From: a plasmid | DNA length: 64,000 nucleotides | NCBI RefSeq assembly: GCF_988243305.1 | Contig: NZ_OZ547138.1 | Reading direction: 5' to 3' (one strand) | Shown here: positions 37-57,609 of the stretch, piece by piece | Numbering within the stretch: the first letter of the stretch is position 1 | How the letters are laid out: each line of letters starts with the position of its first letter | Notes under the pieces: generated by a model | Seen by the model: only the letters and a program-made list of their open reading frames with translations | Told to the model about the DNA's origin: nothing | Databases searched by the model: none | Position numbers and translations under genes: made by a program

Positions 37-334
37 TTTGTTTTACTTCTGCTATCAATCGTGATACCTCTGTTTTTGATAGTGTTTTAAGTGCTTCTAC
101 CGCCGCCCTGACAACATCAGAACGATTCACTCTGCCTTTACCTGAAACCATCTCAGCCGTTATAAGGGCATCAATGTCTTTTAGGTTTTCTTCAAAAAAA
201 GAAATACTCACTGGTTTTGCTTTGCTTACAACCGATGATTTATCTGATGACTTTTTGGTATTATCAAGGCCAGCCGTGCCACCGTTAATAAATGCTGCCT
301 CGTCACGAGGTGAAGTGTTTGCTCTATTTCTCAC
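32..334 (-). CDS. Small partition partner protein (ParG/ParB-like, putative RHH centromere-binding protein)
   Basis: 100-aa ORF overlapping the ParA stop by 4 nt (ATGA); basic C-terminal region; position immediately downstream of ParA. Confidence 0.5.
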   Translation of the reverse strand: MRNRANTSPRDEAAFINGGTAGLDNTKKSSDKSSVVSKAKPVSISFFEENLKDIDALITAEMVSGKGRVNRSDVVRAAVEALKTLSKTEVSRLIAEVKQR

Positions 335-957
335 AGAATAACCTCTTTCACTAACGCTTCGATTTCTTGCTGGGCTTTATCATTTTGCGTTTCAAAAATT
401 GTCATTGATTCGGCCCAAGCATCTCGATGTGCTTTACGATCACATACCCGGGAGTTTGCCAGATGCATTTCAGGGTAATCCTTAAGTACTTCAGCTGCCT
501 CATTGGCTTCATTAACAAACATATTTGTGGGCGTCATGTTTAAAACGAGATATCCCCGAACATCCTCATTAAAATCTTTTGCTGCTGTAAAAACGGAGCA
601 TGTATGAGGCACAACATCCAGGTCCATCTGAGATGGGCGCAAAGGAGAAATGAATACATCTGCGGCCATCAATCCACTACGCATTTCTGCGCTATCACGG
701 CCAGCACAGTCTGCAATAACAAAATCATAGGATTTTTCGTGTTCCTTTAACATGGCTTTGATGTTACCTGTCGCGCCTGTAACCGGAATATGAGGGAGAT
801 CTTCAGGGCGATTGTTGTACCAGGTTAATACTGATTTCTGGTCATCTGCGTCGACAATAATCACTCTATTGCCTAGTGACATCAGATACGCAGCTATAGA
901 TACCGCCAGTGTACTTTTACCTACCCCACCCTTTTGACTACCTAATACTATTATCAT
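331..957 (-). CDS. ParA-family (ParF-like, type Ib) partition ATPase
   Basis: Deviant Walker A motif GSQKGGVGKST near the N-terminus; 208 aa; followed by small partner gene and flanked by repeats. Confidence 0.85.
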   Translation of the reverse strand: MIIVLGSQKGGVGKSTLAVSIAAYLMSLGNRVIIVDADDQKSVLTWYNNRPEDLPHIPVTGATGNIKAMLKEHEKSYDFVIADCAGRDSAEMRSGLMAADVFISPLRPSQMDLDVVPHTCSVFTAAKDFNEDVRGYLVLNMTPTNMFVNEANEAAEVLKDYPEMHLANSRVCDRKAHRDAWAESMTIFETQNDKAQQEIEALVKEVIL

Positions 958-9260: not shown

Positions 9261-9788
9261 ATGAGTGCACGTGGTATCAACAAGGTCATCCTCGTCGGGC
9301 GTCTGGGCAATGATCCGGAGGTCCGTTACATCCCCAACGGGGGCGCAGTGGCAAACCTGCAGGTGGCCACGTCAGAAAGCTGGCGCGACAAACAGACGGG
9401 GGAGATGCGGGAGCAGACGGAATGGCACCGCGTGGTGCTGTTCGGCAAGCTCGCGGAAGTGGCAGGTGAATATCTGCGCAAGGGCGCGCAGGTCTACATC
9501 GAGGGGCAACTCCGTACCCGTAGCTGGGAAGATAACGGTATCACCCGTTACGTCACTGAAATTCTTGTTAAGACCACGGGCACCATGCAGATGCTGGGGA
9601 GTGCACCACAGCAGAACGCTCAGGCGCAACCGAAGCCTCAGCAGTACGGCCAGCCACAGAGTGCTGACGCAACGAAAAAAGGGAGCGCGAAAACGAAAGG
9701 CCGTGGACGTAAGGCTGCGCAGCCGGAGCCTCAGCCGCAACCGCCGGAGGGTGAGGATTACTGGTTTTCAGACGATATCCCGTTCTGA
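9261..9788 (+). CDS. ssb: Plasmid single-stranded DNA-binding protein
   Basis: 175 aa, N-terminal OB-fold sequence [19 protein letters not shown], Gln/Pro-rich linker, acidic tail DDIPF. Confidence 0.95.
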
Positions 9789-51553: not shown

Positions 51554-53857
51554 TCAGAATCTTTTTTTACGACTCTCTTGTTTTCCACCTGATGGTGTCT
51601 GAGCGACATTTTTTTTATGGGGCGGGGATGCAGTTAGATCCGGTACAGGTAACAGCATCTCCAGGGGGAGCAGAGTATTCAGAATCGCCTTCACTGAAGG
51701 TATATCTTCAGGACCGGAGTGTTCCTCTTCCGGACGATTCAGTGTGATATAACATACCCGGCGTTCTTCCCTGGTTGTGTTATTGATAGTGTGCACAGCC
51801 TTTTTCCACAGTTCGTTTGCCCGGGATTCGATATCTGTATCATATTGCGGAAGCAGATCCAGTGATGTCTGCGCTGTTGCCAACTGGCGCTGGAATGTAT
51901 CAATGATACGGTAAGGCTCTGTACGGTTTTTACGACGTTTACGGGATGGTTTTGCTGTCAGTACACCGATGATGCTGCTGACATGCTCCGGTGTGGGGAG
52001 CCTGCGCTGCACTGTCCTGGGGACGAGACGGCGGAGACGCTCCAGCCGGGGGGCTTCAACGGAAATATAGCGGTTGATGACCACCGGATCACTGTCGCAA
52101 CTTTTCTCGCTGTCCGGAATATACACAGAGGCTGACGGCACCACATCCCCCTGGAAAACGGTAAAGAACTCACCAGCATTCAGTCTGATCAAATCCTGCA
52201 CGTCGATTTTGCTTTCCATCTGGATGGTGATCTGGTTACCGTCCACCCAGGACTCACCCATCACACCATCGTGGCGCTGCAGGCTGCCCATTCTGGCCCG
52301 TGCCTCTTCACCGGCGGCATTTTTCACCGTTCTTGCCGTTTTGTCGTCACTGACAATGCGTCCGGCGAATTTGGTGCCGGCGTTCTGCATCAGTGTGGCG
52401 GTGTTGGTGGCGGAGGTCTGCCCTTCAATTCGCTCCTGATCCTGCGCCGTCATTATCAGGGAAAACTCCAGTGAACGTACCTGGGTGGCCTCCACAGCAA
52501 TGCGGTCTGTGTAGTAGGCACCGACTTCGTCAAGGATACAGATATAGGGGAAGCTGCCTTTGTATTTTTTGACTTCCAGGGTCTGTGCATCTGTGCCTTC
52601 CAGCCGGTAGCCCAGGTCACGGGCGAGGAGCATGCTCTGCTGGGTGACGAACATACGACCGAGTGCCGACGTGGTATGAGCCGATGTGTCCAGTGCAGGG
52701 ATCATCACAATCAGAATGCGGTCGCTGTGAATACTGTCGCGAATATCGATGTCGCCGGCATCTGCCGCAAAGACGTCCCCGAAGGTTTCGGCAAAGGTTG
52801 TGAACGTTTCCGAGAACTGACCGGAGAGATAAGCATGCTGTTTACGGGGCTCCTCAGTCCAGGCTGACGGCGTTCTCACCAGTGACATATCGAATCCCGG
52901 GACATCCTGCAGGTAGTTTCGCAGTGGTGCGATAGCTTCTTCCGGCCACTGGTCATCAAGGCCACGGCAATAGAGTTTTGCCATCCCTTCCAGCGTCATA
53001 TGTTCCCGTAACATCTGCAGGGACATGGTTTTACCTTCCCGGACGCACCAGAATTTTGTGCCAAAGACCAGGGCCTTGTTCATGGCTATCGCCCGTGACT
53101 GCCATTCACCGCCCTGAACGTTCTGGGGCAGCATGGACTGCATGGTTTCGGCGGTGAAGGCTTCGGTGCTGAATGCGAACGGGTTCCAGGTGTTTGACTG
53201 TGGGCGGGATTTTTCGCCGCTCTGAATGATTTCACTGCGGGATTTTCCGCCGTTCATGAAGTTGATGACTTCGATATCATCCTCCCTGCCAAAACGTCGG
53301 GAGAGATACCAGATTGTCCTCGTGGTATCGTTCTGTGCCTTTCCGTCAACAAAGGTAAAGCCTCTTCCCCAGCAGAGCGGGTTGAGCAGCCAGGCAAAGG
53401 TGGTTTCTGTTTTACCGCCACCGGTGGTGGCAAAAAACATGACATGCCGGGTGAGGTCATCCATGCTCAGCCAGAGCTCACGACCGATATCGTTGATACG
53501 GCGGTAACCGACATAAAAAATCCCCCGGGCGGGGAATGTTTCATCCGCTTCATACTGAAACAGGGTGGGCCAGAAGCTGAAGAGGCTTCTCCTGACCTTT
53601 CTGTCCTGGGAGGGGTCATCAAGGCTGAGTGTCATGGGCATACGCAGGGGGCATCGCCAGCGTTGCAGCATGAATATCACGGAGGTGACCAGGGTGAACA
53701 GCAGGCAGACAGGAAGGGCCAGTGGCCATATCAGCGCCGTAATGATACTGCCGGCCAGACACAGACCAGTGATGTTCAGGTTATGCAGTGCATTCCACAA
53801 CGGGTTTCCCCAGGCCGTGCGGTGTATGAGGTCAGGATTAACGTGGTGCTGGCTCAT
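51554..53857 (-). CDS. trbC: Conjugal transfer ATPase TrbC (type IVB coupling-protein-like, Walker A)
   Basis: 767 aa; N-terminal transmembrane segments, Walker A FFATTGGGKTET; trbA-trbB-trbC operon convergent with nikB. Confidence 0.8.
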   Translation of the reverse strand: MSQHHVNPDLIHRTAWGNPLWNALHNLNITGLCLAGSIITALIWPLALPVCLLFTLVTSVIFMLQRWRCPLRMPMTLSLDDPSQDRKVRRSLFSFWPTLFQYEADETFPARGIFYVGYRRINDIGRELWLSMDDLTRHVMFFATTGGGKTETTFAWLLNPLCWGRGFTFVDGKAQNDTTRTIWYLSRRFGREDDIEVINFMNGGKSRSEIIQSGEKSRPQSNTWNPFAFSTEAFTAETMQSMLPQNVQGGEWQSRAIAMNKALVFGTKFWCVREGKTMSLQMLREHMTLEGMAKLYCRGLDDQWPEEAIAPLRNYLQDVPGFDMSLVRTPSAWTEEPRKQHAYLSGQFSETFTTFAETFGDVFAADAGDIDIRDSIHSDRILIVMIPALDTSAHTTSALGRMFVTQQSMLLARDLGYRLEGTDAQTLEVKKYKGSFPYICILDEVGAYYTDRIAVEATQVRSLEFSLIMTAQDQERIEGQTSATNTATLMQNAGTKFAGRIVSDDKTARTVKNAAGEEARARMGSLQRHDGVMGESWVDGNQITIQMESKIDVQDLIRLNAGEFFTVFQGDVVPSASVYIPDSEKSCDSDPVVINRYISVEAPRLERLRRLVPRTVQRRLPTPEHVSSIIGVLTAKPSRKRRKNRTEPYRIIDTFQRQLATAQTSLDLLPQYDTDIESRANELWKKAVHTINNTTREERRVCYITLNRPEEEHSGPEDIPSVKAILNTLLPLEMLLPVPDLTASPPHKKNVAQTPSGGKQESRKKRF

Positions 53858-54962
53858 TGTGATACTCCTCGCTATCTGTTGCTTTCAGGAAGAGGCGAAC
53901 GGAAGTGGCGTCTTTCAGGATGCCGGACGGCAGGTGCCAGCCGGTATCTGATAACACCCAGGGGGTTCCGCCAAAACCGAACTGGCGGAAAGCCTGGTTA
54001 TTGACATCGATGGCAGCACGTGCGGCGGTCAGACACTGTCCATCCTGTGCGGCCGGTGCATCGCCGGTGGGGGCCATACCACTGTCAGCGGAATACAGCT
54101 GATGCCATCCGGTCGCCCGTTTTTGTGAGTCCGGTTCACACAGCAGCGGAGCAGTCCGCTTTGTACTGGACTCCCCGCCAATCACGGAGACCGGATAAAT
54201 CACCACGCTGAATTCCCGGGCCAGTTGCTTAAGCGCGGGTTCCAGCAGACGGCAGTTGATGCATGCGGGGTCAAGGAAGGCGTACAGCGTGCGTTCATGA
54301 CCAGTGGACAGGTTAATGGTGAACATCCCCCGGTCTGCGTTGCGTTTAAGTACTGTGGCCAGATTACGGCGGGCCTCAGCGGCCTGAACGTGTTGTTCTT
54401 CCGTCACTGCCGTCGGGGCGGGGGCAGAAGAAGGTTCCTGCTGTGTGGGAGCCGGGCGGGCCGGGATGCTGTTAACATGATGTTCCGTATGTGGGCGTGG
54501 TGTCTCTGTGTCGGTTACTGGTTCAGCTCTCCATTCCTGAGATGTAGGGTAAGCCAGCGTGGAAGGGGGCTCTGCCTTCATCCAGTGGTAACCTGCAACT
54601 GTCGCCGGCAGAGCAATTCCGGCGATAAAGCCACACATCAGTGTCCGCCAGAAGCCATTTTTCCGGGAGGGATGTTTTCCTTTTCCGGCATATTCGGCAT
54701 CCAGGCAGGCATCAATCGCTGAGAGCATTCTGCCGATGTGATGTCCGGGACGTTCTGCATCAACGGTATCAACAAGCACCGTTTCGGTTATTTCGCGAAA
54801 AGGGGAACTGAAGGACAGGTGCATCAGCCTGTTATTACGGTTAATCAGTGCGCCCAGTTCTGTGACTGGCAGGATGGCAATCACCTCCCGATTACCGTCA
54901 GGGTACAGGGCGATCAGGGACAGGTGTTTATTATTCAGTGTTGCAGTGTAGTGGATGGTCAT
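53838..54962 (-). CDS. trbB: Conjugal transfer protein TrbB (thioredoxin-like, CxxC)
   Basis: 374 aa with CINC motif, Pro/Thr-rich linker and a transmembrane segment. Confidence 0.7.
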   Translation of the reverse strand: MTIHYTATLNNKHLSLIALYPDGNREVIAILPVTELGALINRNNRLMHLSFSSPFREITETVLVDTVDAERPGHHIGRMLSAIDACLDAEYAGKGKHPSRKNGFWRTLMCGFIAGIALPATVAGYHWMKAEPPSTLAYPTSQEWRAEPVTDTETPRPHTEHHVNSIPARPAPTQQEPSSAPAPTAVTEEQHVQAAEARRNLATVLKRNADRGMFTINLSTGHERTLYAFLDPACINCRLLEPALKQLAREFSVVIYPVSVIGGESSTKRTAPLLCEPDSQKRATGWHQLYSADSGMAPTGDAPAAQDGQCLTAARAAIDVNNQAFRQFGFGGTPWVLSDTGWHLPSGILKDATSVRLFLKATDSEEYHNEPAPR

Positions 54963-56293
54963 TGTTCTTTTTCCTTGTCGGCGGGATGCTGTTTTTCGGT
55001 GGTTTCGGTGGTTTCGGTGGTTTCGGTGGTTTCGGTGGTTTCGGTGGTTTCGGTGGTTTCGGTGGTTTCGGTGGTTTCACCAGTGTCAGTGTCTTCGTCG
55101 TTATCATGGCGGCGGGGTATCACGTCATCCGTGAGTGACCAGCGGGTCCTGATCTGACGTTTACGATCGCGATCTGGCTGAGGTTCGTCCCATATCAGGC
55201 CCAGCCCCAGCATGTCCCGTCGAAGCCCTTCAATGGCCTCTTCCACACAGGGTTCCGGGCAGGGGAGGCCGAGACGGCTGGCTTCATTTTCTGCCCGGGC
55301 AACGGCCACCACGCCGGCCCCTTCGATGAAGCCTTTTGTGGTGTTTGCCCGGTGAAGGGCATAGAAGAGCGTCCGGTCAACGCCCTTGAGCCACAGCCAG
55401 TTCGGAGGCGTCAGGCGCAAATCATGTGCGTAAAGCCAGACCAGACCGCTGCGAACGTAACGGTGCTGCCTGAGCCACTGTTGTGCGCCTTCTGTTTTGA
55501 TGACCCGGATAAAGGCGTTTCTGGCCAGTGAATACACCGGCGTGCTGAAACGCCCCTGGTCCCGTTTACTTTTGAGCCTGCAGGAGAGATTGAGGTTGTT
55601 CATCAGGGCTACCGCTGCTTTCCGGTCACCGAGGAAGAACTGCAGGCCAAAGATGGCAAAGAGCGCTTTTTCATGTGGGGCCATGTCTTTCCAGCTGGTC
55701 AGTGGTTGCCCCAGTTGCGCCATGAAGCACTGGCGTGTGGACGCAACATCGAGCTGCATGTTGCGGATAAGGTTGTTCTGCTCCACAAAGACTTCGGGGG
55801 TTAGTGCGACACGGCGCTCGGGACGTTTTTGTCCGTGGAAGAGTCTGTTGTTGTCTCCATCAGCCAGAACGGGGGCGATCGCCGGTGACAGAGCTGAAAA
55901 AATATGGGGCAGTGTGTGGATATTCAGTGGCCTGCGGGTAAAACGGGGCTGGGCCGGATGGTGAAACCACATCCACAGAAAGCCGAATGTCATGGGAAGC
56001 AGAATCAACCAGAGGATCCCCACTGTCCGGGACATAACATCCAGCCACTGGCCGAAAGTGATGGTTGCCGCGTTGTTAGCAGTGATGGCCAGCAGGTTGT
56101 AACGGGGGGCGGCAAAGTTGTGAAAGGGCCCCCAGTCAATCATGCCCCACAGTGTGTGCAGGATCAGGCAGGAGGCGAAGACGATTTCAGGTAAAAAGCG
56201 CCAGATGATAATCGCAAAGAGCAGGCATATGGCACCGACGATATACCATATAGCCATTGGATCTTCGGCGGCAGACGTCTGTTGGTAAGACAC
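54959..56293 (-). CDS. trbA: Conjugal transfer membrane protein TrbA with C-terminal TET tandem repeat
   Basis: 444-aa polytopic membrane protein, first gene of the trb operon; C-terminus GETTETTETTETTETTETTETTETTE. Confidence 0.7.
   Translation of the reverse strand: MSYQQTSAAEDPMAIWYIVGAICLLFAIIIWRFLPEIVFASCLILHTLWGMIDWGPFHNFAAPRYNLLAITANNAATITFGQWLDVMSRTVGILWLILLPMTFGFLWMWFHHPAQPRFTRRPLNIHTLPHIFSALSPAIAPVLADGDNNRLFHGQKRPERRVALTPEVFVEQNNLIRNMQLDVASTRQCFMAQLGQPLTSWKDMAPHEKALFAIFGLQFFLGDRKAAVALMNNLNLSCRLKSKRDQGRFSTPVYSLARNAFIRVIKTEGAQQWLRQHRYVRSGLVWLYAHDLRLTPPNWLWLKGVDRTLFYALHRANTTKGFIEGAGVVAVARAENEASRLGLPCPEPCVEEAIEGLRRDMLGLGLIWDEPQPDRDRKRQIRTRWSLTDDVIPRRHDNDEDTDTGETTETTETTETTETTETTETTETTETTEKQHPADKEKEQ
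54994..55080. repeat. Tandem 9-bp repeat (GGTTTCGGT, about 9.5 copies) within the 3' end of trbA
   Basis: Perfect tandem repeats read directly; encode the (TTE)n tract on the minus strand. Confidence 0.85.
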
Positions 56294-56829: not shown

Positions 56830-56925
56830 ATGATTAACCTGTTAATCATCGTTCTCAGGGCGGTTGTTGCTGTGGCTAACGCAGTGATAGCAATCCTGGA
56901 ACTGATCCGGGAACTGGTTGACTGA
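56830..56925 (+). CDS. Candidate DinQ/TisB-like type I toxin, 31-aa hydrophobic peptide (copy 1)
   Basis: MINLLIIVLRAVVAVANAVIAILELIRELVD; RBS GGAG embedded in the palindrome CTCCATTGATGGAG; strong terminator downstream. Confidence 0.55.
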   Translation: MINLLIIVLRAVVAVANAVIAILELIRELVD

Positions 56926-56946
56926 TAATCCCGGAAACGTACTTAA

Positions 56947-56975
56947 GGGCAGAGGGTCACCGCCCTCTGCCCTTT
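56947..56975 (+). terminator. Rho-independent terminator of toxin unit 1
   Basis: 10-bp stem GGGCAGAGGG-tcaccg-CCCTCTGCCC followed by TTT. Confidence 0.6.
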
Positions 56976-57163
56976 AATAATCTACGGACAGATTACTTTC
57001 TGTACTTCCAGAGCCTGTTTCTGTGAGTCAAACATGAGCTGGTTTTTACCGACTACACCCAAGTAAATATATTCGATATCTCCCATTTGCCGTATTTTCG
57101 TAAAATTCAACAGGAAATATTCAACGGGAGTGAGAGAACTGCTGTCCGGGGAGGAGGTACAGA

Positions 57164-57262
57164 CGCAAAAAAACCGACTGGTGAGGCCGGTTTTTTTGCG
57201 ATTCCGGATCGAAGTTGGTAGCCCTGACCGGAAGATAACTGCCTATAACTGACTATGAAATA
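57164..57262 (-). ncRNA. Candidate antisense antitoxin small RNA 2 (predicted, type I TA unit 2)
   Basis: Minus-strand promoter-like TTGCAG-17-TATTAT near 57285-57315, segment 57221-57252 matching the toxin-2 5' UTR motif (57410-57441), hairpin plus T-run 57166-57197. Confidence 0.35.
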
Positions 57263-57513
57263 ATACGGCTGAAATAATATTTCTGCAAGCACAGTATAAG
57301 TATATACTCGGTGTGTCAGCTTTGAGGCACGTTCTTTCCGGCATATCGTTCACCGGGATGAACAGGTTGCAAGTCCTGGCCAAAACATCAGGTGGTGCTG
57401 GTTTTGGTGCTCTGGCCGGAGAAGAACTGTCTATAACTGACACTATAGAAAACGTGGCGACAGGCAATGTAAGGGCAAACCACGGTGTTCTTTCTCCATT
57501 GATGGAGAAGCGG

Positions 57514-57609
57514 ATGATTAACCTGTTAATCATCGTTCTCAGGGCGGTTGTTGCTGTGGCTAACGCAGTGATAGCAATCCTGGAACTGATCCGGGAACTG
57601 GTTGACTGA
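57514..57609 (+). CDS. Candidate DinQ/TisB-like type I toxin, 31-aa peptide (copy 2, identical coding sequence)
   Basis: Coding sequence identical to 56830-56925, same RBS palindrome and terminator. Confidence 0.55.
   Translation: MINLLIIVLRAVVAVANAVIAILELIRELVD

Follow-up and report, generated by a model that had tools for sequence, protein, structure and literature searches.

A 9-bp in-frame tandem repeat in the conjugation gene trbA varies in copy number among I-complex plasmids and is probably tolerated

Close to its 3′ end, the conjugation gene trbA of an I-complex plasmid carries a perfect 9-bp tandem repeat whose copy number differs by whole units between plasmids that are otherwise nearly or entirely identical. 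We studied this tract in a stretch of 64,000 nucleotides from plasmid contig NZ_OZ547138.1 (NCBI RefSeq assembly GCF_988243305.1), hereafter the window, in which trbA lies on the minus strand and encodes a protein related to the type IVB coupling-complex subunit DotM (IcmP). We consider it likely that the tract is a coding variable-number tandem repeat (VNTR) which changes by strand slippage, stays in frame, is tolerated by the protein, and is probably close to neutral.

Tandem Repeats Finder (TRF) described the array with a period of 9, 9.4 copies, 100% matches, no indels, and a score of 170, the highest among 20 arrays within the window. Perfect 9-base periodicity sustained over 85 bases is far more than chance would produce, and the array is a head-to-tail series of near-identical short units, as is typical of VNTRs. 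The unit reported by TRF, TTTCGGTGG, is a rotation of the unit GGTTTCGGT given in a preliminary description of this DNA, which had been made from the sequence alone and had placed the array at 54994–55080; that start holds, whereas that end lies 2 nt too far. Read in codon register on the minus strand, the array is (GAA ACC ACC)x9 at 54998–55078, corresponding to (ETT)9 at residues E406–T432 of TrbA, and it is followed by E433 and by the 11 residues KQHPADKEKEQ, such that the C-terminus of the protein reads ...RRHDNDEDTDTG(ETT)9EKQHPADKEKEQ. The preliminary description had also spoken of a (TTE)n tract at the TrbA C-terminus, which is the same repeat in another register, although it stands near the C-terminus and not at it. 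On the central point of a perfect 9-bp tandem repeat at the 3′ end of trbA coding for ETT/TTE, TRF, the sequence, and the translation of the open reading frame (ORF) all agree.

Copy number was compared across relatives retrieved with a 701-bp query around the tract, which matched 471 PLSDB plasmids (464 of them predicted to be conjugative) and 392 records in 380 of 5,426 complete RefSeq Escherichia coli genomes. From the PLSDB plasmids and from the complete genomes alike, 60 rows were sampled at even spacing, and all 120 match spans differed from the query by exact multiples of 9 bp, with alleles ranging from 1 to 13 units. The implied distribution (units:count) was 1:7, 2:6, 3:4, 4:7, 5:5, 6:10, 7:7, 8:3, 9:3, 10:4, 11:2, and 12:2 in the PLSDB sample, and 1:9, 2:12, 3:4, 4:8, 5:6, 6:5, 7:6, 8:3, 9:3, 10:1, 11:1, 12:1, and 13:1 in the genome sample. 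Sixteen plasmid loci representing each length class were fetched along with three further loci (L018, L022, and L023), and upon inspection of these 19 sequences the length difference was always located inside the tract, while the flanks and the rest of the tail were constant. All 19 translated trbA ORFs were intact and in frame, including alleles with a single unit (L011 and L015), with two units (L018), and with 13 units (L023), the last being the longest allele fetched at 117 bp. The preliminary description had anticipated that the tract could vary between plasmids and had proposed a comparison of copy number across relatives; this comparison clearly did not return one copy number in all relatives, and the expected variation between plasmids is real for both the sampled spans and the inspected loci.

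One candidate for a giant allele was rejected along the way. The +219-bp outlier (H185, locus L022) is a tandem duplication of the trbA-3′/trbB-5′ junction with 9 units in each copy. In this record (NZ_JBEWXE020000002.1, positions 1260–1700 of the locus), the 219-bp duplication leaves a partial second 'TrbA' pseudogene, and it could be either real or an assembly artefact.

We evaluated the speed of change through the 60 best matches to a 5,047-bp segment spanning trbC-trbB-trbA. Nearly all of these matches were free of substitutions, and they carried 2, 3, 4, 5, 6, 7, 8, 9, or 10 units; identities of 99.8, 99.6, and 99.5% in this list corresponded to exactly 9, 18, and 27 gap columns. Two near-identical pairs point in the same direction. 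CP056904 and CP056610, obtained in a single UK wastewater study from two different E. coli isolates, differ by one unit (4 versus 3 units; total lengths 97,730 and 97,721 bp) and are otherwise identical across the 45 kb compared. The window and its closest relative, NZ_CP145695.1, which carries the 27-kb resistance region of the window at the identical site, display no substitution over 64 kb and differ only at the trbA tract (9 versus 6 units) and at an 8-bp array (8 versus 7 units). In this relative comparison of assemblies, the tract therefore changes faster than point substitutions in its flanks, as VNTRs do, and at least as fast as substitutions accumulate over tens of kilobases. From the two pairs and the list of 60 matches, we infer a rate that exceeds that of a single site by some four to five orders of magnitude. 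Still, the trbA tract is not chaotic: five 119,787-bp plasmids from sheep faeces, sampled in one study, all carry 6 units, as do several 109,845-bp Shigella sonnei plasmids.

This agreement between independent assemblies of clonal plasmids also bears on whether the copy-number differences could be artefacts, arising from sequencing errors or from arrays collapsed or expanded during assembly. Assemblers are known to make mistakes in tandem repeats, and the odd junction duplication of L022 shows that unusual structures do occur at this locus. However, the longest allele is below the typical short-read length, the differences always consist of whole units between perfect flanks, and alleles track sequence lineages, with interrupted units confined to one lineage. 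Considering these observations, an artefactual origin of the variation appears extremely improbable.

Regarding mechanism, nine identical 9-bp units would allow the nascent strand to pair with its template out of register, shifted by whole units, while DNA is being synthesized, and such mispairing, whether in vegetative replication or in complementary-strand synthesis after conjugative transfer, would add or remove units. Slippage, the standard mechanism for arrays of this type, is what we propose here. Lineages with pure ACC-ACC units reach 11–13 copies, while the sampled members of the lineage with units interrupted by ACT/ACA have 1–4, and this effect of purity on copy number is as expected for slippage. 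Because the unit is three codons long, every allele remains in frame and the ATGA coupling to the downstream gene trbB is untouched. The only effect at the product level is thus a TrbA tail with (ETT)n, where n ranges from 1 to 13.

The tract nevertheless ends just 35 nt upstream of the trbB start, which overlaps the trbA stop, and the ribosome-binding region of trbB (AAGGA) encodes the last TrbA residues, ADKEKEQ. To judge from the sequence, trbB is translationally coupled to trbA through the ATGA overlap, and one could envision that the repeat acts as a phase-variable switch or regulator of trbA, or of the coupled trbB, via mRNA structure or spacing. The 9-bp unit, the whole-unit differences in every sampled allele, and the intact frame of every translated ORF all argue against such a switch, and the ATGA and Shine–Dalgarno sequences are identical in every translated locus of the window's lineage. 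Moreover, when the ViennaRNA partition function was computed for n = 0–15, the Shine–Dalgarno sequence of trbB was unpaired with a probability of 0.749–0.756 and the initiation region with a probability of 0.63–0.66. An effect on trbB at the RNA level was rejected on the basis of this flat predicted accessibility. Contingency loci of Haemophilus, Neisseria, and Campylobacter do resemble the trbA tract in relying on slipped-strand mispairing in a perfect short repeat in or near a gene, but their units are not divisible by 3 or lie in promoter spacers, leading to on/off switching, whereas the 9-bp unit of trbA is in frame and leaves the coupling unchanged. No frame shift was observed among the translated alleles, and we regard a phase-variable role as very unlikely.

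The protein that carries the repeat could be assigned with several independent comparisons. The Pfam DotM_C profile (PF23127) matched TrbA with an E-value of 2.2e-47 and 162 bits (cut-off 27) over residues 185–358, covering profile positions 2–171 of 172. A sequence search of the PDB returned entries of Legionella DotM/IcmP, with TrbA residues 4–358 aligned to residues 9–362 of full-length DotM. An AlphaFold2 model of TrbA, built from a 21-sequence alignment, was then compared with the PDB using Foldseek: the top 13 matches were all Legionella DotM (probability 1.00, target-normalised template modelling scores of 0.60–0.79), while matches below these had E > 2. TrbA and DotM (IcmP) of Legionella pneumophila hence share a domain, a fold, and the succession of an N-terminal membrane-helix region and a basic cytoplasmic domain. 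They differ in that identity is only ~24–26% and in their C-terminal ends, as the DotM alignment stops ~18 residues before the DotM C-terminus, whereas the TrbA described here has 86 residues past the domain, including the repeat. Against the DotM/IcmP equivalog NF033890 of NCBIfam, TrbA scored 69.2 bits, below the cut-off of 230, although residues 16–359 were aligned with profile positions 3–347 of 356; TrbA is accordingly a distant homologue, and not a functional equivalog, of Legionella DotM. NCBIfam contains no TrbA-specific hidden Markov model (HMM).

The genomic context is that of a type IVB conjugation system, with trbB and trbC directly downstream of trbA, and traO-traY, excA, and nikAB present in collinear relatives. 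In identical relatives, the RefSeq product name is 'IncI1-type conjugal transfer protein TrbA'. MOB-suite typed the carrier plasmids as IncK2/Z, IncI1/B/O, or IncI-gamma/K1, with a MOBP relaxase and mating-pair formation type MPF_I, and these carriers belong to the IncB/O/K/Z group of the I-complex. Conjugation of R64, and likewise of the IncB/O/K/Z plasmid pMS7163B, has been reported to depend on trbA (PMC10286972).

In the AlphaFold2 model, the last helix of TrbA spans residues 351–364, and residues 373–444 are without secondary structure, with predicted local distance difference test (pLDDT) values of 27–45. The tract is therefore predicted to be located in a disordered tail beyond the DotM_C domain. 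Residues 392–444 have a net charge of −13, and each ETT unit contributes three residues and one negative charge. Such a tail could in principle serve as a tuning device, in which acidic (ETT)n would bind the basic domain of TrbA itself or a partner (TrbC, the relaxase, or the primase), or might, as a variant of this idea, be a pseudo-substrate similar to the Glu-rich signals of Legionella DotM. Conjugation efficiency or substrate choice would then be determined quantitatively by tail length, which the plasmid could retune quickly thanks to hypermutability. Several observations fit this possibility: the DotM_C domain (+10) and the tail (−13, growing more negative by one charge with each unit) are electrostatically complementary, all 17 TrbA homologues at 58–77% identity end in an acidic stretch and a C-terminal Phe, suggesting a functional C-terminus in the family, and the allele distribution is broad yet bounded at ≤13 units. 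In addition, surface arginines of Legionella DotM bind acidic Glu-rich C-terminal peptides (PMC5802825). However, four of the five arginines involved in this recognition are not conserved in TrbA. Among DotM R196, R197, R217, R314, and R315 (residue roles from PMC5802825), only R314 has a counterpart, being aligned with an Arg (VDRRLWY versus VDRTLFY), while R217 is aligned with an Asp and R196/R197 fall outside the confident alignment, such that the Glu-rich receptor site of DotM was not recovered in TrbA. In the AlphaFold2 model, no segment of the tail is confidently docked. Circulating plasmids include carriers of all alleles between 1 and 13 units, near-clonal plasmids can have very different alleles, and IncI1-type plasmids conjugate without the tract. 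Finally, TrbA is a cytoplasmic/inner-membrane protein with no obvious external diversifying pressure. Overall, we consider that a tuning function of the tail is unlikely.

A more specific version of this idea, which we find more doubtful still, is that the hypermutable tail is a length-tunable acidic pseudo-substrate or tether of the type IVB coupling complex, competing with or mimicking, for a basic surface on TrbA or TrbC, the acidic C-terminal tails that transferred or recruited proteins have. Such tails include the SSB-type ...DDIPF tip, which related TrbA tails resemble. If true, conjugation efficiency would be a quantitative trait able to evolve rapidly and reversibly.

Returning to the explanation we favor, i.e., an in-frame repeat that slips and is tolerated, the length variation is most likely near-neutral rather than functional. 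The low pLDDT, the tract-free TrbA of IncI1-type plasmids, and the variable tails across the family all indicate that the tail is expendable or plastic. Several points nonetheless weigh against this explanation. The near-identical pairs were picked because their tracts differ, leaving the list of 60 best matches as the unbiased support for fast change, and the unit counts of records that were not fetched are derived from span length. Likewise, we infer both neutrality and slippage, the latter in vegetative or in conjugative synthesis. Lastly, with an acidic tail next to a basic domain and an acidic, Phe-ending C-terminus in the relatives, it is possible that the tail region has a role, one that could vary with its length.

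The comparison with IncI1 plasmids of the R64/ColIb-P9 type informs the origin of the tract. These plasmids have the same gene, the same trbA-trbB-trbC operon, and type IVB conjugation, but their TrbA is 402 aa long, lacks the ETT tract, and is followed by an 18-nt spacer before trbB (L017, 1590–1630), where the window has the ATGA overlap (54959–54997 for the corresponding junction). IncI1-type TrbA is 77% identical over residues 1–394 and ends in ...LPRTPATDNEF, whereas the trbA ORF described here continues through the repeat and the Shine–Dalgarno region of trbB up to the ATGA, across what is a spacer in IncI1-type plasmids. The trbA-trbB junction has thus been remodelled between lineages. 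No ETT tract was found in IncI1-type TrbA or in the Enterobacter homologue (which ends in ...RPGDDDDLIF), and IncI1-type TrbA and other homologues have no such tail or a far shorter one. As these comparisons show, the tract arose only in the IncB/O/K/Z-type lineage, and the shortest alleles (GAA ACC ACC GAA AAA and GAA ACC ACA GAA ACC) look like a proto-repeat.

Across the DotM/TrbA family, represented by 98 full-length sequences after clustering at 50%, tails are extremely variable. A repetitive tail as a general trait of the family was considered and rejected, as a perfect peptide tandem repeat was detected in only one other of the 98 representatives (P0124, EIPEIPEIP). The tips of the 17 homologues at 58–77% identity (among P0003–P0040) include EDDEQPF, DDDSPF, DDAPIF, and TDNEF, and resemble the C-terminal tip of the single-stranded DNA-binding protein SSB. 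The IncB/O/K/Z lineage has lost this Phe-ending acidic tip and has the ETT tail instead. Separately, the window encodes a plasmid ssb gene (9261–9788), the product of which ends in ...FSDDIPF.

The distribution of the repeat across lineages also allowed us to consider whether it is a DNA-level cis element, i.e., a set of iteron-like protein-binding sites that coincidentally lie inside trbA. An iteron-like 8-bp array beside a ParA operon in the same window shows that such arrays do exist on this plasmid. In trbA, however, one unit suffices in many plasmids (e.g., L011 and L015), and IncI1-type relatives, whose gene order is the same, do not have the array. It is not intergenic, it is without an inverted partner, and its 9-bp period does not correspond to helical phasing. 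In lineage 2, furthermore, synonymous changes (ACC/ACT/ACA) conserve the peptide and not the DNA word. A role as binding-site array is consequently barely credible.

Coding VNTRs are well known from multilocus VNTR analysis (MLVA), for instance the 6-bp STTR loci of Salmonella Typhimurium, which include STTR10pl, carried by plasmid pSLT. VNTRs of this type share short perfect units, whole-unit variation between close relatives, a mutation rate well above that of substitutions, and use as epidemiological markers. In contrast to the STTR loci, the trbA tract is part of a gene that I-complex resistance plasmids need for conjugation, and to our knowledge it is part of no typing scheme. A description of the trbA tract was not found in the full-text literature searched. 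In a study of IncI1 plasmids (PMC8004404), a 9-bp repeat was reported near pilJ and not in trbA, which is nearly invariant in IncI1. Taken together, the trbA tract adds a new case to a familiar class of features, as a solid but ordinary instance of coding-repeat instability.

In practice, within this widespread group of resistance plasmids, the tract can be one of very few differences between otherwise identical plasmids, and it could be used as a fine-scale transmission marker for IncB/O/K/Z plasmids. Conversely, it needs masking or special handling in comparisons of plasmids based on single-nucleotide polymorphisms, core-genome multilocus sequence typing, or identity. For the biology of the coupling complex, the tract is evidence that this lineage can freely vary the C-terminal tail of its DotM-like subunit; if tail length did matter, this would point to an unstudied role of the TrbA tail.

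The variable tract is also a cause of inconsistent annotation. RefSeq names follow the allele, with 'IncI1-type conjugal transfer protein TrbA' for alleles of ≤9 units, 'conjugal transfer protein TrbA' for 10–11 units, and 'hypothetical protein' for 12 units. Newer RefSeq records use 'DotM-related subunit', and generic or altered names were seen in L004, L007, L010, L016, and L023. Since the NCBIfam DotM_IcmP score is equal for 1, 9, 12, and 13 units, the change of name by the Prokaryotic Genome Annotation Pipeline is not an effect of the HMM score, and it presumably results from length or coverage rules. Coordinates of the repeat, of trbA and its domains, and of the downstream genes are collected in Table 1.

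Table 1. Positions, in the window, of the trbA repeat and of the genes and domains around it.
Feature	Coordinates	Strand	Evidence
9-bp perfect tandem repeat (VNTR)	54994..55078	-	TRF, sequence, codon view
trbA, 444 aa, DotM/IcmP-like type IVB coupling-complex subunit	54959..56293	-	ORF, Pfam, PDB, Foldseek, RefSeq
DotM_C cytoplasmic domain, TrbA residues 185-358, net charge +10	55220..55741	-	Pfam PF23127, charge count
Predicted disordered C-terminal tail, TrbA residues 373-444, containing the repeat	54962..55177	-	AlphaFold2, charge count
ATGA overlap of trbA stop (TGA) and trbB start (ATG)	54959..54962	-	sequence, ORF coordinates, IncI1-type alignment
trbB, DsbC-like thioredoxin-fold protein, 374 aa	53838..54962	-	ORF, weak Pfam Thioredoxin_2, RefSeq 'DsbC family protein'
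trbC, DotL-like type IV coupling protein, 767 aa, last gene of trbABC	51554..53857	-	ORF, Pfam TraG-D_C, RefSeq

Other repeats and variable regions were noted elsewhere in the window. Just upstream of trbA, a ~684-bp tandem duplication (~56830–57609, with 12-bp TRF matches at 56893 and 57577) contains in each copy a gene annotated, in the identical relative, as a DinQ-like type I toxin (dqlB), and its copies have diverged from the homologous region of CP056904 (82% identity). On the other side of the operon, a ~27-kb multidrug-resistance region (23734–50991) is inserted, with the 3′ end of trbC on one side and the small ORF downstream of nikB/tolA-like on the other. The region carries IS26, mph(A)-mrx-mphR, IS6100, chrA, sul1-qacEdelta1-aadA5-dfrA17-intI1, TnAs1, tet(A), strAB, ISVsa3, and sul2. 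CP056904 does not have this region, and in NZ_CP051713 the site is taken by another resistance region, of 9 kb; with such differing occupancy, the site is an insertion hotspot.

The 8-bp array in which the window also differs from NZ_CP145695.1 consists of 8.2 copies of AAGATAAC at 1082–1147, with one unit being AAGACAAC, and is thus a second fast-changing tandem array. An inverted counterpart, three copies of TGTTATCT, is found at the window edge (1–24). These 8-bp arrays flank an operon encoding a ParA-family ATPase (ParA at ~331–957, minus strand), and in this position they look like a centromere or operator-like iteron array.

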